A DNA stretch of 64,000 bases from positions 3,498 to 67,497 of the forward strand of contig JADGOO010000106.1 in NCBI GenBank assembly GCA_017882905.1, in the 5' to 3' direction. A program made the position numbers and the translations under genes. The stretch's first letter is position 1. Each line of letters begins with the position of its first letter. Source of the DNA: Acidimicrobiia bacterium (GTDB taxonomy: Bacteria; Actinomycetota; Acidimicrobiia; IMCC26256; PALSA-610). The notes under the pieces were generated by a model that worked only from the letters and a program-made list of their open reading frames with translations, was not told where the DNA came from and did not search any database. Shown here in pieces: positions 46,730 to 57,234 of the stretch.

Positions 46730-47731
46730 TTGCGTCCGGTCATCGCGATCGACGCGATGGGCGGTGATCGCGCGCCCCACGAGATCGTGGCCGGCGCGCT
46801 GGCGGCGCGCGACGCCGTGGGTGTCGACGTGCTGCTCGTCGGCGACGACGCCGCGGTCCGCGCCGAGCTGCCCGGTGGCGAACCTCCCGCCGGCGTGAGC
46901 CTGCTGGCCACCACCGAAGTCATCGCCATGCACGAAGACCCCGCCGCGGCGGTACGGGCCAAGCGCGACAGCTCGATCGTGCGCGCCGCCGAGGTCGTGC
47001 GTGACGGCCGGGCCCACGCCTTCGTGGGCGCAGGCAACACCGGCGCCACGATGGCCGCCGCGCTGTTGCGCTTCGGCCGCATTCGGGGCGCGGCCCGCCC
47101 GGCGATCGCCGTGCCGATCCCGATCGCCGGATCCGCTCGCCGCCAGCTGCTCGTCGACGGCGGCGCCACCGTCGATCCGCAACCTGAGTGGCTCGTGCAG
47201 TGGGCACATCTCGGTCGCGCCTACGCCCGGCTGCGCCTCGGCGTCGAGAACCCCACGGTCGGGCTCCTGTCGAACGGCGAGGAAGCGGGTAAGGGCGATG
47301 CGCTGCGCAAGGCCGCGTACGCACGCTTCGAAGCCGAGGTGCCGGAGTTCGTCGGCAACGTGGAAGGCCGCGACCTGTCGCGTGTCGCGGCCGACGTGAT
47401 CGTCACCGACGGTTTCACGGGCAACGTCGCGCTGAAGACGATCGAGGGGGCGATGATGGGCATCGCCGGGCTGGTGTTCTCCGTGCTCGACGAACCCGAC
47501 TTCGCCGAGATCTCCGGGCCCATCAAGCTGCGCCTCCTCGAAGCCGCGTCCGATCTGCTCCCCGACAACACGGGTGGGGCGCTGCTGCTTGGTGTCCAAG
47601 GCGTCTGCGTGATCTCGCACGGGTCGTCGTCGGCGAACGCGATCGTGAACGCGGTGCGCGTGGCTGCCGCGTGCGTGGAAGCCGATGTCGTCGAATCGCT
47701 CGCCGGCTCGTTGCGCCGAGCGGCGGTCTAG
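46730..47731 (+). CDS. plsX: Phosphate acyltransferase PlsX
   Basis: IAIDAMGGD.AP, AGNTGA, NGEEAGKG, GNVEG, DGFTGN, HGSS. Confidence 0.96.
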   Translation: MRPVIAIDAMGGDRAPHEIVAGALAARDAVGVDVLLVGDDAAVRAELPGGEPPAGVSLLATTEVIAMHEDPAAAVRAKRDSSIVRAAEVVRDGRAHAFVGAGNTGATMAAALLRFGRIRGAARPAIAVPIPIAGSARRQLLVDGGATVDPQPEWLVQWAHLGRAYARLRLGVENPTVGLLSNGEEAGKGDALRKAAYARFEAEVPEFVGNVEGRDLSRVAADVIVTDGFTGNVALKTIEGAMMGIAGLVFSVLDEPDFAEISGPIKLRLLEAASDLLPDNTGGALLLGVQGVCVISHGSSSANAIVNAVRVAAACVEADVVESLAGSLRRAAV

Positions 47732-47734
47732 GCG

Positions 47735-48046
47735 ATGCCCGCCGAGACCCACAGCCATGGTCACGGCCTCGACCGCAGCGACGTGAGCGCGCTCGTCGTG
47801 GAACGCCTCGCCGAGCTCCTCGGCCGCGACCCCGACGACCTTCGGCCCGAGCTGCGCTTGCGGGACGACCTCGACGCCGACGATCTCGTCGTGCTCGATC
47901 TCGTGGAGGCCGTGGAACAAGAGCTCGGCGAGCGCATGGTGGGCCTGCACCTCGACGACGACGATCTCGTGGAGCTCGAGACGGTCGGCGAGCTGATCGA
48001 CTGCGTGTGCGATCACCTCGGCGTCGCCGGCGGGTCGGGCCGGTGA
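47735..48046 (+). CDS. Acyl carrier protein-like, lacking the phosphopantetheine serine
   Basis: Acidic ACP pattern between plsX and rnc; DDLDADDL in place of DLxADSL. Confidence 0.8.
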   Translation: MPAETHSHGHGLDRSDVSALVVERLAELLGRDPDDLRPELRLRDDLDADDLVVLDLVEAVEQELGERMVGLHLDDDDLVELETVGELIDCVCDHLGVAGGSGR

Positions 48047-48837
48047 GCGACATCGATCTCACCCAGCTCGCCGCCCGCGCCGAGCTCGAGCGCGTGCTCG
48101 GCGTGACGTTCCGAGACCCGTCGCTGCTGCTGCGATCCCTGGCCCACCGTTCCTGGTGCGCCGAGAACGGCGAGGTGGCGAGCAATGAGCGGCTCGAGTT
48201 CCTCGGCGACTCCGTGCTCGGCCTGGTGGTCACCAACCACGTGTTCGCGCATTTCCCCGGTCTTCCCGAAGGGCAGCTCTCCGAGGTGCGTGCCGGCGTC
48301 GTGAACGCCCGCACGCTCGCCGAGGTCGCATCCGAGCTGGCGCTCGGCGATCACCTGCTCCTCGGCAAGGGTGAAGACGCCGCCGGCGGCCGGACCAAGC
48401 AATCGATCCTGGCCGACGCGCTCGAGGCCGTCATCGCCGCCATCTACCTCGATGCCGGCTTCGCCGAGGCCGAGCGGTTCGTGATGCGGGTCCTGTTGAC
48501 CCGTATCGACGAGGCGGCCAGCGGACCGGGTGGGCGCGACTACAAGACCCGGCTCCAGGAGCTGGCCGCCTCCCGATCGCTCGGCCGGCCCCGGTACCAC
48601 GTGCGCGACGAGGGGCCCGACCACGCCAAGACATTCTTCGCCACCGTGCTGCTCGACGGCGCCCCATCGGGGGAGGGCGAGGGCCGTTCCAAGAAGGAAG
48701 CCGAGCAGGCCGCGGCGTGGATGGCCCACGAGCACCTCACGGGGGCGTCCGCTTCGGGGCTACCGTCGCCCTCGCCGTCGGGCGACCAGCACGCGCTCGA
48801 CACGGCGATCGGTTCTGAGGAGAGTGCGGGCACATGA
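48043..48837 (+). CDS. rnc: Ribonuclease III
   Basis: NERLEFLGDSVL, ADALEA, DYKTRLQE, SKKEAEQAAA. Confidence 0.97.
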   Translation: MSDIDLTQLAARAELERVLGVTFRDPSLLLRSLAHRSWCAENGEVASNERLEFLGDSVLGLVVTNHVFAHFPGLPEGQLSEVRAGVVNARTLAEVASELALGDHLLLGKGEDAAGGRTKQSILADALEAVIAAIYLDAGFAEAERFVMRVLLTRIDEAASGPGGRDYKTRLQELAASRSLGRPRYHVRDEGPDHAKTFFATVLLDGAPSGEGEGRSKKEAEQAAAWMAHEHLTGASASGLPSPSPSGDQHALDTAIGSEESAGT

Positions 48838-48852
48838 GCGAGGGTGGGCGTG

Positions 48853-49695
48853 ATGCCGGAGCTACCTGAGATCGAGGCGTTACGGCGTGAGCTCGAGAAG
48901 GATCTCTCGGGGCGAAAGATCAAGACGGTCGACCTCACGTCGCTGAAGTGCGTGCCGCGGTACCGCACGAAGAAGGCGTTCACCGACCCCATCGAGGGTC
49001 GCAAGATCCTCGGCCTGGAGCGGCGCGGGCCGTTCCTCGTGATGCGCCTCGAGGGCGGCGACGCCGTCGTCATGGATCTCGGGCCGCAGGCGTCGTTGCA
49101 GCGCGCCACGGGCCGCCAGGCGGTCACCAAGGCCACCCAGATCGTGGTCACGTTCACCCAGGGCGGCCAGCTGCGGCTGGTCGACCCGAAGGGCGCTTCC
49201 GAGGCGTGGGTGCTGCCCGCGGCCGAGCTGTCCGGCGCGCCTGAGCTGGCCGGCCTCGGGATCGACCCGCTCGAAGCGGCGATGTCGTGGGAGACGTTCG
49301 GGCGCCTGATCTGGCAGCGGCACGCCAAGCTGAAGCCGCTGTTGATGGATCGCCAGGTGATCGTGGGCATCGGGCCCGTGTACGCCGACGAGATCTTGTT
49401 CGCGGCCGGGCTGCGCCACGACCGCGACAGCGACAAGCTCACCGAACAGGAGATCCGGCGCCTGTACCGGGCGATCGTGGAGACGATGCAGGACGCGGTG
49501 AAGTACCGCATGTCGCCGGCGGGTGTGGCGGCGAACAAGGCGGCGACGTCGGGCGACCCGTTCGACGACGACAGCGCCGAGCACTTCAAAGTGTTCGAGC
49601 GTGACGGCGAAGCGTGCCGGCGGTGCCGTCACCACATCGTGAAGCTCCGGATCGGCGGCCGCGCGACCTACTTCTGCGAAGCCTGCCAAGTCTGA
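48853..49695 (+). CDS. mutM: Fpg/Nei family DNA glycosylase (divergent)
   Basis: MPELPE, H2TH GIG..YADEILF, C-terminal CRRC...R...CEAC; several catalytic residues substituted. Confidence 0.8.
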   Translation: MPELPEIEALRRELEKDLSGRKIKTVDLTSLKCVPRYRTKKAFTDPIEGRKILGLERRGPFLVMRLEGGDAVVMDLGPQASLQRATGRQAVTKATQIVVTFTQGGQLRLVDPKGASEAWVLPAAELSGAPELAGLGIDPLEAAMSWETFGRLIWQRHAKLKPLLMDRQVIVGIGPVYADEILFAAGLRHDRDSDKLTEQEIRRLYRAIVETMQDAVKYRMSPAGVAANKAATSGDPFDDDSAEHFKVFERDGEACRRCRHHIVKLRIGGRATYFCEACQV

Positions 49696-49712
49696 CGACC
49701 GACGCCCCCAAC

Positions 49713-49762
49713 CGCGGCTTGCTCGAGCGCACCGGTGGGAGCGACCCGTACGCTCACCAGAA
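49713..49762. repeat. Left arm of the inverted repeat flanking acyP (REP-like)
   Basis: CGCGGCTTGCTCGAGCGCAC + GAGCGACCCGTACGCTCACCAGAA. Confidence 0.85.
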
Positions 49763-49769
49763 GCTACGA

Positions 49770-50051
49770 ATGACGTCCTCTGAAGCGGTTCGCGCGCACG
49801 TCTGGGTGTCCGGACGGGTCCAGGGAGTCTGGTTCCGCGACGCCTGCCGGGACCGGGCCCGTGCCGAGCGCGTCACGGGCTGGGTGCGCAACCTCATCGA
49901 TGGACGGGTCGAGGCGGTGTTCGAGGGTCCTGTCGCGGCCGTCGACCGGATGGTCGCCTGGTGCCATGAGGGACCGCCGCGAGCCCACGTGATCGACGTC
50001 GAGGCGCGCCGCGAAGTCGCACTCGGCGAGGCGTCGTTCACGGTGCGTTGA
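49770..50051 (+). CDS. acyP: Acylphosphatase
   Basis: VSGRVQGVWFR, GWVRN..DGRVE, GPP.A.V. Confidence 0.95.
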   Translation: MTSSEAVRAHVWVSGRVQGVWFRDACRDRARAERVTGWVRNLIDGRVEAVFEGPVAAVDRMVAWCHEGPPRAHVIDVEARREVALGEASFTVR

Positions 50052-50066
50052 GGGCCCCTGCGCCCG

Positions 50067-50118
50067 TTCTGGTGAGCGCACGGGTCGCTCAGCGACGTGT
50101 GCGCTCGAGCAAGCCGCG
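50067..50118. repeat. Right arm of the inverted repeat flanking acyP (REP-like palindrome)
   Basis: Reverse complement matches the left arm 23/24 and 20/20; internal palindrome GAGCGCAC-GG-GTCGCT-C-AGCGAC-GT-GTGCGCTC. Confidence 0.85.
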
Positions 50119-50219
50119 AAACGGGGGTGACGCGGTCCGCGGGTGGGGGAGAGGGGGCGCCTACGATCTGTCCCGGGAGGAGGGGCGCGCGCCGACCGGC
50201 GTGCTCCGACGGTGCATCT

Positions 50220-53200
50220 GTGTTCCTGAAATCGCTCCAGATGAAGGGCTTCAAGTCCTTCGCCGAGAAGACCACCCTCGACCTCGAGCCCGGCGTGACC
50301 GTGATCATCGGTCCGAACGGATCGGGCAAGAGCAACGTCGTCGACGCTGTGGCCTGGGTGCTCGGTGCGCAAGGCGCACGAGCCCTGCGCGGCGGCAAGA
50401 TGGACGACGTCATCTTCGCCGGCACCGCCCAGCGCCCGGCCCTCGGCCGCGCCGAGGTGTCGCTCACCATCGACAACACGAGCGGCGTGCTGCCGATCGA
50501 TTTCTCCGAGGTCACGATCACGCGCCGCCTGTTCCGCACGGGCGACAGCGAGTACGAGATCAACGGCGTTCCGTGCCGGCTCCTCGACATCCAAGAGCTG
50601 CTCTCGGACAGCGGGATCGGCCGCCAACAGCACGTGATCGTGGGTCAGGGCCAGCTCGACACGGTGTTGAACGCCCGTCCCGAAGACCGACGGGCGATCA
50701 TCGAAGAGGCCGCGGGCGTCCTCAAGTACCGCAAGCGCAAGGAGAAGGCCGAGCGCCGCCTCGAAGCCACCGAGGGCAACCTGCTCCGCCTCACCGACTT
50801 GCTGCGCGAGGTGCGCCGTCAGCTCCGTCCACTCGAACGCCAGGCCGACGCGGCTCGGCGCTATGAGGGCCTGGTGGCCGACGTGCGCGCGGCGCGGTTG
50901 CACCTCACCGGCCGCGAGATCGACAAGCTCCGTACCCGCCAGGAGCGCCAGAGCGCACAGCGCGTCGAACTCGTGCGCGGCGAGAGCGAGCTGCGCGGCC
51001 AGCTGCGCGCGCTCGATTCCCGCGTCGCCGAAGCGGAGCGTCACCTCTCCGTGTCGAGCGACGACGACGCGGCCGACGCGTTGCTGCGCGTCGAGCAGCT
51101 GCGCGAGCGCGGCCGCGGACTGCAAGCACTTCTCGCCGAGCGCGTGCGCGGTCTCGACCGCGAGCTGCTCGCGGCCGCCGACGAAGGTGTTGTCGAGACG
51201 CTCGTGGCCGACGCCGACGCGATTCGCGTCGAGCTGCGCGCCGTCGAAGCCGACTTCGAGTCGTTGGCGCCGACGCGCATGGAGGTCGACGCGGCCGAGG
51301 CGCGCGTGCAAGAGCTCCGTGACGAGCTCGAGACGGCGGCTGACGCCGTGCCCGAGCTCGCACCCGAAGGCCGCGAGCGCCGCGCTGCGGAAGACGCGCT
51401 CGAACAGGCGACTGCGGCATGGCGCGATGCGGATGGCGAGTGCACGTCGCTCGCCCGCACCGAAGAGTCGTTGCGCCGCGACGAACCGCGGCTCGCCGCG
51501 CAGCTCGCGGAGGCGGCCGCCGCGCTCGCCGGAGTGGCCGGCGAGCGGGATGCGCTCGAAGCTGCGGCGCGCGAAGCCGAGTCGGCGCGGGCGCTGCTCG
51601 ACGCCGACAACGCTCGTCCGTCCGATGAGACGCCCGAAGGTTCGCAGCGCCGCGCGGCCGATGCCGCGCTCGACGGCGCTACGGCCGAGCTGCACGAAGC
51701 GCAATCCGCGGCCGCCCGTTGGCGAGCCCGCGCCGACACGCTGCAGCTCGCGCTCGACGAGGCACATGCCGCCGCGGGCGGCGATGCGATCCAGGCCGTC
51801 CAGGGCGTGCTCGGGCCGATGCTCGATCACTTGCAGATCGACGACGGTGCCGAGCTCGCGGTGGCTGCCGCGCTCGGCGACGCGCTCCACGCGGTGGTCG
51901 TCGACAGCGACACCGCCGCCCGCGCCGCGATCGACGAGCTCAAGCGCGGTCAGGCATCGGCGCTCCTCGTCGTGCTCGACGGCCGGGCCGGCCATGTGGC
52001 CCCGAGCCAGTCGATGTTCGTGCCTTCCGGCACGCGCGCACTCGGCGATTGCGTGCGCAGCGCACGCCCGGGCCTCGACGCCGTGCTGCGCCGTCTGCTC
52101 GCGAACGTCGTACTGGCAGCCGACTGGCGCCAGGCCGTCGACCTCGCGCTCAGCGACCCGGGAATCGTCGCGGTCACGATCGAAGGCGACCGCTTCGGCG
52201 GTGGTGGTGCGTGGCGCGCTGGGCCGAGTGGCCGTACGGCCGTCACGCCGGCTGCGCTCGAAGAAGCCCGCACCCGTGCGGCCGAAGCCGAGACCACGCG
52301 CGACACCGCCGAAGCGGGCGTGCGCGACGCGCGCGAGCGCGTGGCGCAGGCGCGGGCGGCCGAGCAGCGAGCCGCCGAGGCCCTGCGCGCCCGGCGCCAT
52401 CAGGTCGATCAAGCGCTCGACGAGGTGGGCCGCCGGCGCCGCGATTTCGAGCGGCGCACAGCCGGGCTCGACGAGCGTCACGCGCAGATCGCCGCGCGCC
52501 TCTCTGAGATCGCTACCCACCTCGCTGGTGTGCCGGCCGCGCTCGCCGACGCGACGGCGCGCCGCGAGAGCGCTGATGTGGATGTCGAAGCGGCCCGCCA
52601 ACGAGTCGCGGCCGCGCGTCGGGCCGAGCTGGTCGCCACCGAGACGTTGCGCGCCCGGCGCGGCGAGCTCGATCGCCTGCGCGCCGGAGCCGCGGCGCTG
52701 CGCCGCGACTTCGAGGTGCGCGGCGCCGGCATCGATGAGCGTCGCAACGTGCTCACGCGCCGACTCGACGAGATCGAGCGCCGGCTGGCGGCCCGACCCG
52801 ACGAGGAAGCTGCCGCCCAGGCGCGCCGGCTCGTGCTCACGGAGCGGCTCGCTTCGGTCGGCACGCTCGGCGTGCGCCTCGGGGAACAGCTCATCGCGGC
52901 CGACGCACTCGCGGAGCGGTTGCACGAGCGTCGCCGCCGTCAATCGGAAGCCGCTCGCGCCGCAGGGCTCACCCTCGACGCACTGCGCGTGGAGCGCGTC
53001 GACGCCGAACGCCACCTGACCGAGATGCGCGAGCGGGTGTCGCGGCTCGAGGTGGAAGACGCCGAGATCGCCCTGCGGCTGGAGACGGCTGTGGAGCAGG
53101 TGCGCCGGGAGTTCGACTGCGAGCCCGAGGCTGCGGTCGCCGCGCCGGCGCCCGAGCTGCCCGAGCAGGTGTCGCTCGCGCAGCACGTGCGCGACCTCGA

Positions 53201-53831
53201 TCGCGAGCTGCGGATGCTCGGTCCGATCAACCCGCTCGCGCTCTCCGAGTATGAGGCGCTGCTGGAGCGGCACGACTTCCTCACGAACCAGCTCGACGAC
53301 GTGAAGCACAGCCGGCGCGAGCTCAACCGCGTGATCCAGGCCGTGAACGCCGAGATCGTCGCCAGCTTCGACGCGGCGTTCGCCGACGTGTCGCGCTACT
53401 TCGAAGAGCTGTTCGCGCTGCTGTTCCCCGGCGGTTCGGGGCGGCTGTTCCTCTCCGATCCCGACGACCCGTTGCAGACCGGCGTCGAGGTGGAGGCACG
53501 CCCGTCGGGCAAGATGCCGAGGCGCCTTTCGCTGCTCTCGGGTGGCGAACGCTCACTTGCCGCGCTTGCGTTCTTGTTCGCGGTGTTCCGCGCTCGTCCC
53601 TCGCCCTTCTACCTGCTCGACGAGGTGGAAGCCGCGCTCGACGATGTGAACCTGCACCGCTTCCTCGACCTCGTGCACGAGTTCCGCAACGAGGCGCAGC
53701 TCCTCGTGGTGTCGCACCAGAAGCGCACAATGGAATCGGCCGACGTGCTCTACGGCGTGTCGATGCCGCCGGGCGGCTCGAGCCGCGTGGTCAGCCAGCG
53801 CATGCGTGATCTCGCGCTCGAAGACGCTTAG
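50220..53831 (+). CDS. smc: Chromosome segregation protein SMC
   Basis: GFKSFA, GPNGSGKSN, GQG Q-loop, hinge, LSGGE, LLDEVEAALD, SHQK. Confidence 0.97.
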   Translation: MFLKSLQMKGFKSFAEKTTLDLEPGVTVIIGPNGSGKSNVVDAVAWVLGAQGARALRGGKMDDVIFAGTAQRPALGRAEVSLTIDNTSGVLPIDFSEVTITRRLFRTGDSEYEINGVPCRLLDIQELLSDSGIGRQQHVIVGQGQLDTVLNARPEDRRAIIEEAAGVLKYRKRKEKAERRLEATEGNLLRLTDLLREVRRQLRPLERQADAARRYEGLVADVRAARLHLTGREIDKLRTRQERQSAQRVELVRGESELRGQLRALDSRVAEAERHLSVSSDDDAADALLRVEQLRERGRGLQALLAERVRGLDRELLAAADEGVVETLVADADAIRVELRAVEADFESLAPTRMEVDAAEARVQELRDELETAADAVPELAPEGRERRAAEDALEQATAAWRDADGECTSLARTEESLRRDEPRLAAQLAEAAAALAGVAGERDALEAAAREAESARALLDADNARPSDETPEGSQRRAADAALDGATAELHEAQSAAARWRARADTLQLALDEAHAAAGGDAIQAVQGVLGPMLDHLQIDDGAELAVAAALGDALHAVVVDSDTAARAAIDELKRGQASALLVVLDGRAGHVAPSQSMFVPSGTRALGDCVRSARPGLDAVLRRLLANVVLAADWRQAVDLALSDPGIVAVTIEGDRFGGGGAWRAGPSGRTAVTPAALEEARTRAAEAETTRDTAEAGVRDARERVAQARAAEQRAAEALRARRHQVDQALDEVGRRRRDFERRTAGLDERHAQIAARLSEIATHLAGVPAALADATARRESADVDVEAARQRVAAARRAELVATETLRARRGELDRLRAGAAALRRDFEVRGAGIDERRNVLTRRLDEIERRLAARPDEEAAAQARRLVLTERLASVGTLGVRLGEQLIAADALAERLHERRRRQSEAARAAGLTLDALRVERVDAERHLTEMRERVSRLEVEDAEIALRLETAVEQVRREFDCEPEAAVAAPAPELPEQVSLAQHVRDLDRELRMLGPINPLALSEYEALLERHDFLTNQLDDVKHSRRELNRVIQAVNAEIVASFDAAFADVSRYFEELFALLFPGGSGRLFLSDPDDPLQTGVEVEARPSGKMPRRLSLLSGGERSLAALAFLFAVFRARPSPFYLLDEVEAALDDVNLHRFLDLVHEFRNEAQLLVVSHQKRTMESADVLYGVSMPPGGSSRVVSQRMRDLALEDA

Positions 53832-53846
53832 GACGGTCGCGGCCGC

Positions 53847-54491
53847 GTGATCGCGTCGCTGGCTTCCGCCGCGCCCGCTTCCGACGCGCACCGCGCCGCG
53901 TGTGGTGCGCCGGGGCACCGGCGTTGGCTGTGCGAGCTCTTCTGGTCACACAGCGACAGCCATGCGCTGGCGCGCGTCGGTCACTACCTGTCGCCCTGGG
54001 TCACGTCGCTACTGATCGTGCTCGGCGCCGTGGTCGTGAACCGCGTCGCGCGCGTGGTGGTACGCCATGTGGTGAGCCGCCTGATCGCGTTGCGGCCCGG
54101 GTCCGATCCGCCGCGCCGGGCGCGGCGCGCCGACACGATCGGCGCGGCGATGCGCAGCCTGGCCACGATCGTGATCTCGTTGATCACGGTGTTCGCGGTG
54201 ATCGCCGCGTTCGGCATCAGCCTGACGCCCCTGGTCGCCGGCGCGGGCCTCACGGGCGTGATCCTCGGCTTCGGCGCGCAGAACCTGCTGCGCGACACGA
54301 TCGCCGGTGCGTTCATGATCTTCGAGGACCAGTTTGGCGTGGGCGACCGTATCGACACCGGCCTGGTGACGGGAGTGGTCGAGAACGTGACGTTGCGCCT
54401 CACGAGCGTGCGCGACGACGACGGCGTGCTCTGGCACGTGCCGAACGGCGCCGTCACGCGCATCGCCAACCTCAGCCAGCGCGTCACCTGA
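53847..54491 (+). CDS. MscS-family mechanosensitive channel
   Basis: GFGAQNLLRD..AG.F..FEDQF.VGD, VE..TLR.T, VPNG. Confidence 0.88.
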   Translation: MIASLASAAPASDAHRAACGAPGHRRWLCELFWSHSDSHALARVGHYLSPWVTSLLIVLGAVVVNRVARVVVRHVVSRLIALRPGSDPPRRARRADTIGAAMRSLATIVISLITVFAVIAAFGISLTPLVAGAGLTGVILGFGAQNLLRDTIAGAFMIFEDQFGVGDRIDTGLVTGVVENVTLRLTSVRDDDGVLWHVPNGAVTRIANLSQRVT

Positions 54492-54556: not shown

Positions 54557-55732
54557 ATGCTCCCCGTGATCATCATCGTTGCCGTCGTGGTTGTGCTCGC
54601 CTTGACCACGTTCACCGTGGGGCGGGTTCGGAGCCGGCGCGGCGGCCGCGACGTGGTCGCGCCGCCGGAAGCACCGATCTCGCGTCCGATCACGCCGTCT
54701 GCGCGTCCGACCGCGCCCGGCGTCGAACCGGGAGCGGCCGTCGAAGCCGGAGATCTCGCACCACTGGCCGAGGCGCCGGTCGAGTCGGCTCCCGAAGCGC
54801 CGCCGCTGGCACCGCCCGAGGTGCCGGTCAAGGCGCGGTTGCGCGATCGCCTCGGCCGAACCCGTGCCGCGTTCGCGGGCTACGTACGAGGCATCGCCGG
54901 CCGCAAGGTCGACCAGAGCACCTGGGACGACCTCGAAGAAGCGCTGTTGCTCGCCGACGTGGGTCTCGAGACCACGAGCCACCTCCTCGGCGCCGTGCAG
55001 GCGCGCGCCAAGGAGTTCAAGGTCACCGACGCCGACGAGGTCGTGGCGCTGCTGCGGACCGAGATCGAGGCACTGCTCGAGCAGTCGGGAGTCGACCGAA
55101 CGCTGCGCGAGGTTCCCGGCGAGGTCAACGTGTGGATGTTCGTGGGCGTGAACGGCGTGGGGAAGACCACCACGATCGGCAAGCTCGCCGCCCAGCAGAT
55201 CGCAGAAGGTCGCTCGGTCGTGCTCGCCGCGGGCGACACGTTCCGCGCGGCAGCAGCCGAGCAGCTCGGCCTCTGGGCCGACAAGACCGGTGCCACGATC
55301 GTGCGCGGGCAAGCCGACGGCGACCCGGGCGCGGTCGTGTTCGACGCCATGAGCGCGGCCACGAGCCGCCACGTCGATCTGCTGCTCGTCGACACCGCCG
55401 GACGCCTGCACACGAAGCAGAATCTGATGGCCGAGCTCGAGAAGCTCAAGCGCATCATCGACCGCACCGAGGGCGCGCTCAAAGAGGTGCTGCTCGTGAT
55501 CGACGCCACCACCGGCCAGAACGGTCTGCAGCAGGCCAAGCAGTTCGCCGAAGCGGTCGACGTGAGCGGCATCGTGCTCACGAAGCTCGACGGCACCGCC
55601 AAGGGCGGCATCGTGTTGGCGATCCAGGCCGAGCTGGGGCTGCCCGTGAAGCTCGTGGGTGTGGGCGAACAGCTCGGCGATCTGATCGAGTTCGACCCCC
55701 GCGAGTTCGCGTCGGCGCTCTTCGAGGAGTGA
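54557..55732 (+). CDS. ftsY: SRP receptor FtsY
   Basis: N-terminal TM, GVNGVGKTTT, DTFRAAA, DTAGRL, TKLDGTAKGG. Confidence 0.97.
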   Translation: MLPVIIIVAVVVVLALTTFTVGRVRSRRGGRDVVAPPEAPISRPITPSARPTAPGVEPGAAVEAGDLAPLAEAPVESAPEAPPLAPPEVPVKARLRDRLGRTRAAFAGYVRGIAGRKVDQSTWDDLEEALLLADVGLETTSHLLGAVQARAKEFKVTDADEVVALLRTEIEALLEQSGVDRTLREVPGEVNVWMFVGVNGVGKTTTIGKLAAQQIAEGRSVVLAAGDTFRAAAAEQLGLWADKTGATIVRGQADGDPGAVVFDAMSAATSRHVDLLLVDTAGRLHTKQNLMAELEKLKRIIDRTEGALKEVLLVIDATTGQNGLQQAKQFAEAVDVSGIVLTKLDGTAKGGIVLAIQAELGLPVKLVGVGEQLGDLIEFDPREFASALFEE

Positions 55733-55788: not shown

Positions 55789-57234
55789 GTGTTCGAGTCG
55801 CTGTCCGAACGGTTCGAGGGGATCTTCAGCCGCCTCTCCAAGCGGGGCCGGATCTCGCCGGCCGACGTCGAGGAGGTGGGGAGCGAGCTGCGCCGCGCCC
55901 TGCTCGCGGCCGACGTCAACGCCCGTGTGGCGCGCGCGTTCGTCGATCGCGTGAAGGAGCGCGCCGTCGGCGCGGAGGTGCATCAGGCCCTCAACCCGGC
56001 GCAGCAGGTGCTGAAGATCGTCAACGACGAGCTCGTCACGATGCTCGGTGGCGAGACCGGCAAGATCACGATGAGCTCGAAGCCGCCGACGATCGTGCTG
56101 CTCGCCGGTCTGCAGGGCTCGGGCAAGACCACGCACGCCGCGAAGCTCGCTCGTCACCTGAAGAGCCAAGGGTTGCAGCCGATGCTCGTGGGCGCCGACC
56201 TGCAGCGACTGGCCGCCGTGGAGCAGCTGCGCACGCTCGCCGAGCGCGTCGATGTGCCGTTCTTCTCCGAGGCGAGCGACCCGGTGACCGTGGCCACGAA
56301 GAGCCTCGCCGAGGCCGCGCGCCTCGGCCGCAACGTGGTCATCATCGACACTGCGGGTCGACTGCAGATCGACGACGACCTGATGGACGAGCTGCAGCAC
56401 CTGCGTGACACGGTGCACCCGCACAACACGCTGCTCGTGATCGACGCCATGATCGGCCAGCAAGCCGTCGACGTGGCCGAGGAGTTCAACCGGCGCATCG
56501 GCCTCGACGGCGTGATCATCACCAAGATCGATGGCGACGCGCGCGGTGGCGCGGCGCTCTCGGTGAAAGAAGTGGTCGGCAAGCCGATCCTGTTCGCGGG
56601 TACGGGCGAGAAGCTCGACGAGTTCGAGGTGTTCCACCCCGACCGCATGGCGAGTCGCATCCTTGGCATGGGCGACCTGATGACGCTCATCGAGAAGGCC
56701 GAGGCGACCTTCGACACGCAACAGAAGGAACGCGCCGAGGAGATCCTGCGCGACGGCTCCTTCACCCTCGAAGACTTCCTCGGTCAGCTACAGCAGGTCC
56801 GCAAGATGGGACCCCTGCAGCAGGTGATCGGGATGATGCCCGGGCTCCCGAAGGAGCTGAAGGGTGTCGAGGTCGACGACCGCGAAGTGGTGCGCATCGA
56901 GGCGATCATCCAGTCGATGACCGCGGCCGAGCGCATGAAGCCGGAGATCATCAACGGCAGCCGCCGCAATCGCATCGCCATGGGCTCGGGCACGTCCACC
57001 AACGAGGTGAACAAGCTGCTCAAGCAGTTCAAGGAGATGCAGAACATGATGAAGAGCATGGGCGCGATGGGCAAAGTGATGCAGCGCGCCGGCAAGAAGA
57101 ACAAGAAGAAGAACAAGGGCAAAGGGGCGGCCCGCCCGGCCGCGGGGCTCCCGGCCGGCGTGGATCTCAGCAAGCTGGGCGACCTGAGCGGCCTCGACCT
57201 GTCGAAGCTCGGCTTCGAGCCCCCCAAGCGCTGA
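55789..57234 (+). CDS. ffh: Signal recognition particle protein
   Basis: GLQGSGKTT, DTAGR, TKIDGDARGG, RMASRILGMGD, M domain. Confidence 0.97.
   Translation: MFESLSERFEGIFSRLSKRGRISPADVEEVGSELRRALLAADVNARVARAFVDRVKERAVGAEVHQALNPAQQVLKIVNDELVTMLGGETGKITMSSKPPTIVLLAGLQGSGKTTHAAKLARHLKSQGLQPMLVGADLQRLAAVEQLRTLAERVDVPFFSEASDPVTVATKSLAEAARLGRNVVIIDTAGRLQIDDDLMDELQHLRDTVHPHNTLLVIDAMIGQQAVDVAEEFNRRIGLDGVIITKIDGDARGGAALSVKEVVGKPILFAGTGEKLDEFEVFHPDRMASRILGMGDLMTLIEKAEATFDTQQKERAEEILRDGSFTLEDFLGQLQQVRKMGPLQQVIGMMPGLPKELKGVEVDDREVVRIEAIIQSMTAAERMKPEIINGSRRNRIAMGSGTSTNEVNKLLKQFKEMQNMMKSMGAMGKVMQRAGKKNKKKNKGKGAARPAAGLPAGVDLSKLGDLSGLDLSKLGFEPPKR

Follow-up and report, generated by a model that had tools for sequence, protein, structure and literature searches.

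The window analysed here is a stretch of 64,000 nucleotides from an uncultured Acidimicrobiia bacterium (assembly GCA_017882905.1, contig JADGOO010000106.1, positions 3,498-67,497). The smc gene, for the housekeeping Smc of Smc-ScpAB, lies on its forward strand at 50220..53831 and encodes 1203 aa plus a stop codon, beginning with a GTG start that matches the N-termini of its orthologs. Its neighbours, all on the same strand and assigned by Pfam, are genes of RNase III (ORF 47671-48837, true start uncertain), an Fpg/MutM glycosylase (48844-49695) and an acylphosphatase (49614-50051) upstream, and of a small MscS-like protein (53847-54491), an FtsY-like SRP receptor (54557-55732) and Ffh/SRP54 (55789-57234) downstream, giving the order rnc-fpg-smc-ftsY-ffh. 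With TIGR02168 (SMC_prok_B; cut-off 567.35) the product reaches 852.9 bits, aa 2-1195 being aligned to all positions of the model, 1-1181 of 1181; Pfam matches are SMC_N (aa 2-1183), AAA_23 and SMC_hinge. The host genome has one Smc match, and ScpA (PF02616, 144.5 bits) and ScpB (PF04079, 176.5 bits) are adjacent on its contig C225. Judged by these sequence features, the product is an intact housekeeping Smc, the only one of its Acidimicrobiia genome, in which ScpA and ScpB are encoded as well.

The ATPase head is formed from two halves, both with approximate limits: an N-terminal half at about aa 1-165 (50220..50714), supported by SMC_N, AAA_23 and motifs, and a C-terminal half at about aa 1030-1203 (53307..53828), supported by motifs and the SMC_N match up to aa 1183. 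A motif search located what we take to be the Walker A (aa 31-38) and Q-loop (aa 142) in the first half and the signature (aa 1106), Walker B (aa 1130) and H-loop (aa 1165) in the second. The hinge core occupies aa 528-643 (51801..52148; PF06470 SMC_hinge, 62.3 bits against a cut-off of 22.5), and an AF2 model contains a mixed strand and helix (alpha/beta) domain around it, at aa 525-676. In the arm, a single chain is expected to double back, with the N strand pairing antiparallel to the C strand. The protein resembles other bacterial Smc (Bacillus subtilis, TIGR02168) in its end-to-end alignment, ATPase motifs, hinge, near-canonical arm, ScpA/ScpB and rnc...smc-ftsY-ffh surroundings. It differs from them in that about half of the hinge-adjacent arm consists of two tandem copies of one unit in each strand.

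In the N strand, the head-proximal copy N1 (aa 326-415, 51195..51464) is followed directly by the hinge-proximal copy N2 (aa 416-505, 51465..51734). In the C strand, the hinge-proximal copy C1 (aa 694-781, 52299..52562) precedes the head-proximal copy C2 (aa 782-869, 52563..52826). All four units lie on the forward strand and are supported by self-comparison and unit HMMs. An earlier note on this DNA had proposed these units, and its coordinates are in frame with smc: positions 51195, 51465, 52299 and 52563 correspond to aa 326, 416, 694 and 782, and the proposed end at 52826 falls inside aa 869. Both repeats adjoin the hinge, as the same note had claimed, N2 ending 22 aa upstream of the SMC_hinge match and C1 starting 50 aa downstream.

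C1 and C2 share 43 of 88 residues without a gap. Their Smith-Waterman score of 168 was reached by none of 500 shuffles (mean 48.5, maximum 81; z 16.6), and their DNA identity is 0.614, where the in-frame background of arm-coding windows has a mean of 0.344, an sd of 0.032 and a maximum of 0.466 (n=15,213). Similarity is much lower in the N strand: N1 and N2 agree at 24 of 90 residues (27%), the score is 83 (500 shuffles with mean 46.3 and maximum 74, none reaching 83; z 5.0), and the DNA identity of 0.463 lies slightly below the background maximum. In an all-offset self-scan of the whole protein with 40-aa windows, the offsets of 88 at aa 687 (score 89) and of 90 at aa 379 (score 59) ranked first and second, and both exceed the maximum of 58 found over 100 shuffles of the coiled-coil part; the claim of repeats of about 90 aa in both strands thus held against the shuffled coiled-coil background proposed as a check. 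Four cross comparisons of N units with C units gave no significance (z -1.5 to 1.2). Tandem Repeats Finder reported only short-period rows on the DNA and no 264- or 270-nt period, because the copies are too diverged, and BLASTP of the Smc against itself returned the identity match only, which is uninformative on repeats. The matched repeats in the Smc arm are confirmed as real. The DNA coding for the arm is 75% G+C, and the arm is compositionally biased.

The repeats belong to the host family and not to this genome alone. HMMs of the C1+C2 and N1+N2 units gave two significant matches per strand in 16 of 16 complete family orthologs, so that the duplications, which the earlier note had described for this Smc, are present as claimed and are in addition old and family-wide. 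In raw self-scans, the C repeat was the top match in 15 of the 16; the N repeat did not exceed the shuffle maximum in four (L003, L005, L011, L037) and fell outside the top three in L006 and L010. No family member with a single unit was found among the matches in 58 of 63 family genomes, and the 19 such matches that span query aa 300-900 cover 558-601 aa, none of them about 420. Outside the family, none of the canonical-length orthologs had two matches to the repeat models. A search with the first 1200 residues of this Smc gave 150 protein representatives; when each of these was scanned against itself, P0025 alone stood out, by an offset of 91 within the hinge region, and no second case emerged in this way. 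The C1+C2 peptide, used as a query for related loci, matched three, from Acidimicrobiia or uncultured Actinomycetes MAGs. One Smc of another family, L075 of genome G108, was considered as a second case by its length of 1199 aa and was rejected: it has no match to the unit models, retains the match to the ancestral N block, and its C repeat is not significant.

Orthologs of about 1020 aa with single units, suggested in the earlier note as something to look for, were found in the same order. These short-arm orthologs measure 963-1058 aa (in sister families, loci L031-L036, L077, L079, L081-L085 and L087-L089), have a single unit and lack one matched block in each strand, and show no internal repeat. 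Among the matches listed, they occur in at least 35 of the 121 genomes of the order. Short and long states are patchy even inside two families, and at least six separate state changes are counted on the gene tree, indicating that shortening was recurrent. In five short forms, the deletions in the N and C strands measure 74/73, 67/73, 63/63, 79/87 and 93/102 aa, and the position sums n+c of the deletions are 1131-1155. HMMs built from the lost blocks match orthologs of other orders (six for the N block, two for the C block), showing that these blocks are ancestral.

The host family lacks the same two hinge-proximal blocks that the short orthologs have lost, at outgroup aa of about 386-455 in the N strand and 690-765 in the C strand, which sets it apart from canonical relatives. 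In a profile dot-plot, family aa 619-715 correspond to outgroup 593-689, family 724-786 and 807-892 both match outgroup 766-851, and nothing in the family corresponds to outgroup 690-765. The outgroup HMM of the retained block matches 15 of 16 family members twice; that of the lost C block matches one of 16 family members and one of five short forms. The match in this Smc (25 bits, aa 686-760) is probably due to 30 retained residues at the start of the model. Against a short form of 1028 aa, N1 is collinear with aa 326-417 at offset 0/-1 and N2 with the same stretch at offset -90/-91, and the C strand is collinear at offsets -92 and -180. HMMs of C1 alone and C2 alone match one and the same outgroup region: in long outgroups the C1 model finds about 747-830, where the ortholog of C2 lies, and not the positional equivalent of C1 itself. 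The long outgroup profile contains no internal repeat. Adjacent copies that map to one single-copy region in relatives, and that meet inside sequence which is otherwise contiguous, indicate, at the level of sequence, a tandem internal duplication. The family thus resembles the short-arm orthologs in its missing blocks and in the collinearity of their single unit with each of its copies, and differs from them in having two units per strand instead of one.

The order of these events may be read from the deletion junctions. N1 consists of the joined outgroup segments 331-368 and 457-476, and thus spans the junction; twenty-residue segments of N2 match outgroup 331-350, 349-368 and 457-476, each at rank 1, and aa 481-500 in N2 and aa 391-410 in N1 both match outgroup 457-476. 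The starts of C1 (aa 697-716) and of C2 (aa 785-804) both match outgroup 671-690 at rank 1. This counterpart of the C2 start sits about 76 aa upstream in the outgroup, which implies that C2 also spans the deletion junction. Altogether, eight of eight twenty-residue segments, namely the two C-strand starts and three N1/N2 pairs, with the variable loop and the second block of the repeat excluded, match the predicted outgroup position at rank 1. Each strand thus has the junction in both of its copies, which are also collinear with the 1028-aa form, and the deletion is accordingly placed before the duplications. The lengths agree, with 1028 + 90 + 88 giving 1206, near the 1203 aa observed.

A history of four steps is therefore probable on the sequence anatomy: a canonical arm, a paired deletion, a paired duplication and, in one subclade, a paired trim. 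The starting point would be a canonical Smc of about 1165 aa, its mean arm measuring about 341 aa, which then lost facing blocks of about 67-74 aa in the N strand and about 73 aa in the C strand, producing a short Smc of about 1025-1030 aa that resembles the short-arm Smc still present in sister families. On the family stem, the hinge-adjacent unit would then have been duplicated in tandem in each strand (+90 aa in N, +88 aa in C), giving about 1200 aa with N1 opposite C2 and N2 opposite C1. Finally, one subclade would have been trimmed by 23 aa (N) and 18 aa (C) at facing positions to exactly the canonical arm length, and one family member shortened further. The earlier note had proposed an ancestor of about 1025 aa and two duplications at separate sites; both parts are supported by the junctions and the collinearity, with the amendment that this ancestor would itself have descended from the canonical form. 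Two separate duplication events appear to be needed: the hinge lies between the two sites, which are about 1.1 kb from each other, and no single rearrangement was seen that would place the parts in this order. No ortholog among 46 carries a duplication in one strand only, so the intermediates with one duplication that the earlier note suggested looking for did not appear in this set.

A different order, in which an Smc of about 1165 aa was duplicated to about 1340 aa (arm about 430 aa) and the old blocks were deleted afterwards to give about 1200 aa, is very unlikely. An extra-long intermediate of this kind is permitted by the functional window of 407-435 aa and the minor natural mode of 423 aa given by Burmann et al. 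(2017, PMC5344682), and gene trees set the family beside mostly canonical-length forms. However, the same junction is found in both copies of each strand, which requires either a repeated deletion or a copied unit that was not contiguous; no extra-long ortholog occurs among the 62 extracted, and short forms are common in the order.

The gene trees also bear on the possibility that the arm and hinge were acquired by recombination from a short-arm lineage and then duplicated, the heads having a different history. In heads-plus-hinge trees, the host family (support 98-99) is sister to a mixed clade and is placed neither in nor beside a short-arm clade. Together with the patchy states inside two families and the collinearity of the units with 1028-aa forms of two other families, this placement could be taken to favour recombination, as could the scores of the C2-only HMM, 62 and 46 bits on the 1028-aa forms against 38-45 on long outgroups. 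Higher scores on short forms are expected in any case, as the junction is in one piece there, and common descent with three short forms is not clearly rejected: forcing the family together with them costs 24.0 lnL (AU p = 0.0825), and with all five 38.5 lnL (AU p = 0.0435), for groupings that were chosen with the tree already known. Recombination is thus considered very unlikely, while a common origin of the family with the extant short forms is neither shown nor clearly excluded; it is the anatomy of the copies that points to a short ancestor of the host family.

It is highly improbable that the canonical arm was kept throughout and that neighbouring arm segments became alike through gene conversion or homogenisation. 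The length of 1203 aa is near canonical, the TIGR02168 alignment runs from end to end, and hmmalign places the family on the long-outgroup model without large gaps; that model forces the family into a gap-free alignment in which the duplication is hidden, and only for the short forms was it of use. In 12 of 16 family members the outgroup HMM of the lost N block has a match of 19-32 bits at N2, which is explained by a hinge-proximal part that is kept in every form. The C-strand lost block, on the other hand, is undetectable in 15 of 16 members, and the long outgroup profile offers no repeat. Moreover, homogenisation would have to write in a retained block with the pre-deletion tail directly behind it; these two stretches adjoin each other in tandem copies of the short form, but a canonical arm keeps them apart. 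Chance similarity between alanine-, arginine- and glutamate-rich coiled-coil segments, to which the biased arm composition and the 27% identity of the N repeat might point, can practically be dismissed: the observed scores exceed those of all 500 and all 100 shuffles, no other offset scores as high as these two, and the repeats stand at matching places in 16 of 16 family orthologs, while the outgroups have none.

The four-step history is accompanied by matched changes of the two strands within the family. Among eight members of 1193-1203 aa, a C period of 88 is paired with an N period of 84-90 in six; the exceptions are L005, whose N score does not exceed its own shuffle maximum, and L011, whose best N offset is 70. 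Members of 1159-1172 aa pair C periods of 70-71 with N periods of 67-69 in five of six cases, and the 1141-aa member pairs 59 (C) with 58 (N). On the tree, the 70-aa class forms a nested clade within the family (support 99) and the 88-aa class is paraphyletic at the base of the family, placing the trim later than the duplication. Facing copies also diverge alike, the mean identity across orthologs being 0.426 for N1 and 0.544 for C2, against 0.346 for N2 and 0.394 for C1. The AF2 model of aa 300-900 (pLDDT 88), read for secondary structure, has long helices on either side of the hinge, with breaks at aa 323 and 859; their sum is 1182, and the indel positions predict 1181. On these secondary-structure breaks and the indel arithmetic, the duplicated units are predicted to pair in register, which would set N2 opposite about aa 691-773 and N1 opposite about aa 774-855.

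The lengths of the arms can be compared with published classes. The earlier note had cited a period of about 91 residues and discrete natural classes, and both are given in Burmann et al. (2017, Mol Cell 65:861, PMC5344682): Smc works at certain arm lengths only, viability varies with arm length with a period of 91 aa, the functional windows in B. subtilis are 253-267, 330-373 and 407-435 aa, and natural lengths cluster in modes of 238, 341 and 515 aa, besides the minor one. In the current work, the mean arm is 361 aa in this Smc, about 341 in canonical relatives, 244-275 in short forms, 340.5-341 in the trimmed subclade and 330-361 across the host family, lengths that depend on the chosen anchors (reference aa 170-520 and 660-1030) and are robust only as differences between orthologs. 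By these anchors, this Smc lies inside the published 330-373 window and the short relatives lie in or near that of 253-267, where 244 and 275 are borderline and anchor-dependent. The earlier suggestion that the protein moved up one length class stands insofar as length was gained by paired duplications; the gain is a return to the canonical class and does not create a new one. N and C arm lengths are strongly correlated (r = 0.98, 46 orthologs), and no unmatched block of about 90 aa was found among these 46.

At 88-90 aa, the natural step nearly equals the 91-aa period, and the matched resizing of both strands near the hinge resembles the engineered Mini-Smc and extended chimeras described in PMC5344682. 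Unlike those constructs, the proteins compared here are natural, and the order of events can be reconstructed from them; the natural deletions, at 63-102 aa, are not exactly one period. By analogy, selection on arm length or on superhelical phase may have driven the compensation.

On balance, it appears that SMC arm length evolves in paired quantum steps, with facing modules lost and regained by separate compensating events in a round trip from about 341 to about 270 and on to about 361 aa, with one subclade returning to 341. If this is true, strong stabilising selection would act on the canonical arm length and phase, and an intermediate mismatched in one strand would be viable, at least transiently. 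In the literature searched and in passages of Burmann et al. (2017, PMC5344682), no account was found of how a lineage crosses between arm-length classes, and the searches gave no published case of matched SMC arm duplications; that paper treats the classes and not the moves between them, and its text does not contain the word 'duplication'. A path between classes may be read from the sequences of this family, from paired deletions through paired tandem duplications of about one superhelical period to paired trimming. With the hinge between the duplicated sites and one event required for each, the question arises of how a duplication in one strand only is tolerated. The variants on offer, whose strands have a single unit, a pair of units, or trimmed units with periods of 88, 70 and 59 aa, would form a natural allelic series from 963 to 1203 aa on which the published periodic length rule may be tested.

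The protein encoded at 50220..53831 (+) is the housekeeping Smc. The ORF is in frame over 50097..53831, and the GTG at 50220 was taken as its most plausible start; the resulting 1203-aa protein begins at the N-terminus shared by every ortholog. It covers the full length of the NCBIfam model TIGR02168 (SMC_prok_B) and scores 852.9 bits (cut-off 567.35). The Pfam domains SMC_N and SMC_hinge (aa 528-643) are present, together with the Walker A, Q-loop, signature, Walker B and H-loop motifs of the ATPase. The only Smc match in the genome was the window protein itself, and ScpA and ScpB are adjacent to each other on a different contig. The smc neighbours are RNase III, Fpg, acylphosphatase, a small MscS-like protein, FtsY and Ffh; close relatives with named records are Acidimicrobiia or uncultured Actinomycetes MAGs. 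Two open frames overlapping smc, 49764-53309 (-; 1181 aa) and 50863-53019 (+, another frame; 718 aa), were not counted as genes; long overlapping frames are expected at 70-76% G+C.

The four repeat starts claimed by the earlier note are all in frame and correspond to aa 326 and 416 in the N strand (units N1, aa 326-415, and N2, aa 416-505) and aa 694 and 782 in the C strand (C1, aa 694-781, and C2, aa 782-869). C1 and C2 share 42-43 of 88 residues (48%) in an ungapped comparison, with a Smith-Waterman score of 168 that none of 500 shuffles reached (mean 48.5, maximum 81). N1 and N2 share 24 of 90 residues and score 83, also reached by none of 500 shuffles (mean 46.3, maximum 74). Cross-comparisons of N units with C units remained at background level. 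When the whole protein was scanned against itself at all offsets, the highest score, 89, fell at offset 88 (aa 687, C strand) and the next highest, 59, at offset 90 (aa 379, N strand). Both lie above shuffled coiled-coil background, for which the best of 100 shuffles scored 58. DNA identity is 61.4% for the C pair and 46.3% for the N pair, compared with an in-frame background of 34.4% (sd 3.2%, maximum 46.6%), and Tandem Repeats Finder did not detect the arm repeat in the DNA. The C1/C2 identity of 48% stands against 32-39% in the other seven orthologs with an 88-residue C period, and C1 copies from different orthologs average 39% identity; the high value may reflect partial gene conversion in the lineage of the window Smc, or chance.

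Orthologs were sampled as 46 complete sequences from relatives, the order and the class, followed by 16 more. HMMs of the units gave two significant matches per strand in all 16 complete orthologs of the family. The C repeat ranked first in the raw self-scan of 15 of these 16. The N repeat was weaker: it did not exceed the shuffle maximum in L003, L005, L011 and L037, and in L006 and L010 it did not rank among the three best offsets. Among members of 1193-1203 aa, a C period of 88 is paired with an N period of 84-90 in 6 of 8, the exceptions being L005, with an N score not above the shuffle maximum, and L011, with a best N offset of 70. Among members of 1159-1172 aa, C periods of 70-71 are paired with N periods of 67-69 in 5 of 6, and the 1141-aa member pairs C 59 with N 58. 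The repeat periods of the two strands thus co-vary across the family. An Smc match is present in 58 of the 63 family genomes searched, among which no member with single units was found; the 19 matches spanning query aa 300-900 cover 558-601 aa, and none covers about 420. The rows include G087, a genome flagged as unpublished, and no conclusion depends on it by itself.

Two matches to the unit HMMs were found in no canonical-length ortholog outside the family, and profile dot-plots of the long outgroup showed no internal repeat. Raw self-scan scores above 60 were observed in two canonical-length outgroup proteins, L090 (G171; N arm, 69 at offset 70, aa ~375) and L091 (G109; N arm, 65 at offset 208, aa ~432), and in the non-family L036 (G032; 64 at offset 84, aa ~648-770). 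These signals are isolated, lie just above or near shuffle maxima, and have no HMM or profile dot-plot support. Among 150 self-scanned cluster representatives, the sole score of at least 65 belonged to P0025 (1181 aa; offset 91 at aa 511, region aa ~511-640) and was judged unrelated; it lies inside the hinge and may represent the internal two-fold symmetry of that domain. L075 (G108:C81:65800-70700), of another family, is equally long at 1199 aa but has zero matches to the family's unit HMMs. It retains a match to the ancestral N block, its retained C block is shifted by ~37 aa, and no C repeat was found in it. In its N strand, offset 89 gives a weak self-similarity (z 3.3, reached by 3 of 300 shuffles).

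Shorter orthologs with single units, predicted at about 1020 aa, do occur: intact Smc genes of 963-1058 aa were found in the order of the window genome, in families f6, f7, f9, f12, f14, f17 and f32 and in one genus of f11. By listed coordinates, an smc span of no more than 1028 aa occurs in at least 35 of 121 searched genomes of the order. When five short forms were aligned to a model built from canonical relatives, each was missing a block in both strands (N/C: 74/73, 67/73, 63/63, 79/87 and 93/102 aa), and the position sums of these deletions, 1131-1155, are as would be expected for facing segments of an antiparallel coiled coil. On a 62-row tree the short state requires at least six changes, and a short genus falls within a long-arm group with strong support; shortening is therefore recurrent. 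Class-level outgroup Smc proteins are 1146-1192 aa long and some are matched by HMMs of the lost blocks, so the long form is ancestral. In f11, one genus has forms of 985-987 aa and the others of 1131-1163 aa; in f12, forms of ~960 aa occur alongside spans of ~1157 aa. The presence of both forms within these families indicates that arm shortening in the order is repeated and recent. Outside the order, Smc frames of ~881-897 aa in G045, G050, G055, G060 and G065 (one genus, genomes of 1.0-1.1 Mb) and of ~1083 aa in G048, of the same class, are further arm-length classes. L086 (G130:C6:18500-23000), a 1090-aa Smc of a short-arm genus, has a very strong internal repeat at aa ~463-560 (score 194 at offset 40, aa 482; second score 84 at offset 60), which looks like near-identical short tandem units near the N-strand entry into the hinge and accounts for ~88 residues more than its 987-aa sister.

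The composition of the family's arm relates it to these short forms. HMMs of C1 alone and C2 alone match canonical outgroups at one place, ~aa 747-830, and neither model has an outgroup match at the positional equivalent of C1. An outgroup-built HMM of the retained C block matches twice in 15 of 16 family members. The HMM of the adjacent C block, missing in short forms, matches 1 of 16, namely the window Smc at 25 bits, which we attribute to 30 retained residues that open that model. In profile dot-plots family aa 619-715 correspond to outgroup 593-689, and family 724-786 and 807-892 each match outgroup 766-851; outgroup 690-765 is therefore missing from the family. The family is collinear with the 1028-aa form at an offset of -92 through C1 and -180 from C2 onward in the C strand, and at 0/-1 through N1 and -90/-91 through N2 in the N strand. 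The family arm is thus that of the short form with one tandem copy added in each strand.

The order of events was examined by sliding 20-residue pieces of the family profile along the entire outgroup profile. The starts of C1 (aa 697-716) and C2 (aa 785-804) both fall on outgroup 671-690 (rank 1, z 4.6 and 4.4), a segment that in canonical forms precedes the retained block by ~76 aa; the overlapping controls, aa 690-709 and 778-797, fall seven residues upstream, on 664-683. Three N-strand pairs also have rank-1 matches: aa 331-350 and 421-440 on outgroup 331-350, aa 351-370 and 441-460 on 349-368, and aa 391-410 and 481-500 on 457-476. No clear outgroup match was obtained for the variable-loop pieces, aa 371-390 and 461-480, or for the second 20 residues of C1 and C2. 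These paired matches imply that every copy spans a deletion junction, which is also visible by eye in the alignment of each copy. The simplest reading is that deletion came first and was followed by tandem duplication of the junction-spanning unit.

The proposal of a short ancestor lengthened by paired duplications stands in that both copies carry the junction and the lengths add up (1028 + 90 + 88 = 1206, near the observed 1203 aa); the ancestor itself is inferred and unobserved. In the gene trees the family is not united with any short lineage. Constraining it to group with the five short forms lowers the likelihood by 38.5 lnL (AU p = 0.0435), and with three of them by 24.0 lnL (AU p = 0.0825); both groupings were chosen with the tree already in view. 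The case for a short ancestor thus comes from sequence anatomy. An intermediate duplicated in one strand only, also sought, was found in none of the 46 orthologs.

The region aa 300-900 was modelled with AF2 from 41 aligned orthologs (mean pLDDT 88). In the model the hinge domain occupies aa 525-676, the N-strand helix is broken at aa 323, 348-349, 376-381 and 465-471, and the C helix runs unbroken from aa 677 to 858, with a break at 859. The breaks at 323 and 859 sum to 1182, which fits the 1181 that the indel positions predict. If helical residues are counted from the hinge towards the heads, by secondary-structure arithmetic and not from a contact map, N2 would lie opposite ~aa 691-773 (C1, 694-781) and N1 opposite ~aa 774-855 (C2, 782-869). 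Mean identities across orthologs are 0.426 for N1 and 0.544 for C2, and 0.346 for N2 and 0.394 for C1; facing copies share a rate of change.

In trees of the heads, hinge and outer arm, with repeat columns excluded, the family is a single clade (support 98*-99*). The 88-period members are the first to split off within it, and the 70-period members group together as a clade nested among them (99*). This subclade lacks reference aa 372-394 and 789-806, and the sums of 1178 and 1183 indicate that the two trimmed positions face each other. Mean arm lengths, which depend on the anchors we chose, are about 341 aa in canonical forms, 244-275 aa in short forms, 357-361 aa in 88-period members, 340.5-341 aa in the trimmed subclade and 330.5 aa in the 1141-aa member. 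Burmann et al. 2017 (PMC5344682) gave natural arm modes of 238, 341 and 515 aa, minor modes of 163 and 423 aa, a viability period of 91 aa, and functional windows of 253-267, 330-373 and 407-435 aa; the word 'duplication' is absent from the text of that article. Full-text literature searches listed no paper describing tandem duplications that arose naturally in SMC arms. Across 46 orthologs, which are kin and not independent points, the lengths of the two arm strands are correlated (r = 0.98). L013 (G015; 1182 aa, arms 342/364) sits inside the trimmed 70-period clade, with about 13 extra residues in the N strand and 11 in the C strand. L037 (G019; 1141 aa) is shorter by another 5 and 4 aa, with periods of 59 and 58. 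In both proteins the two strands have again changed by matched amounts.
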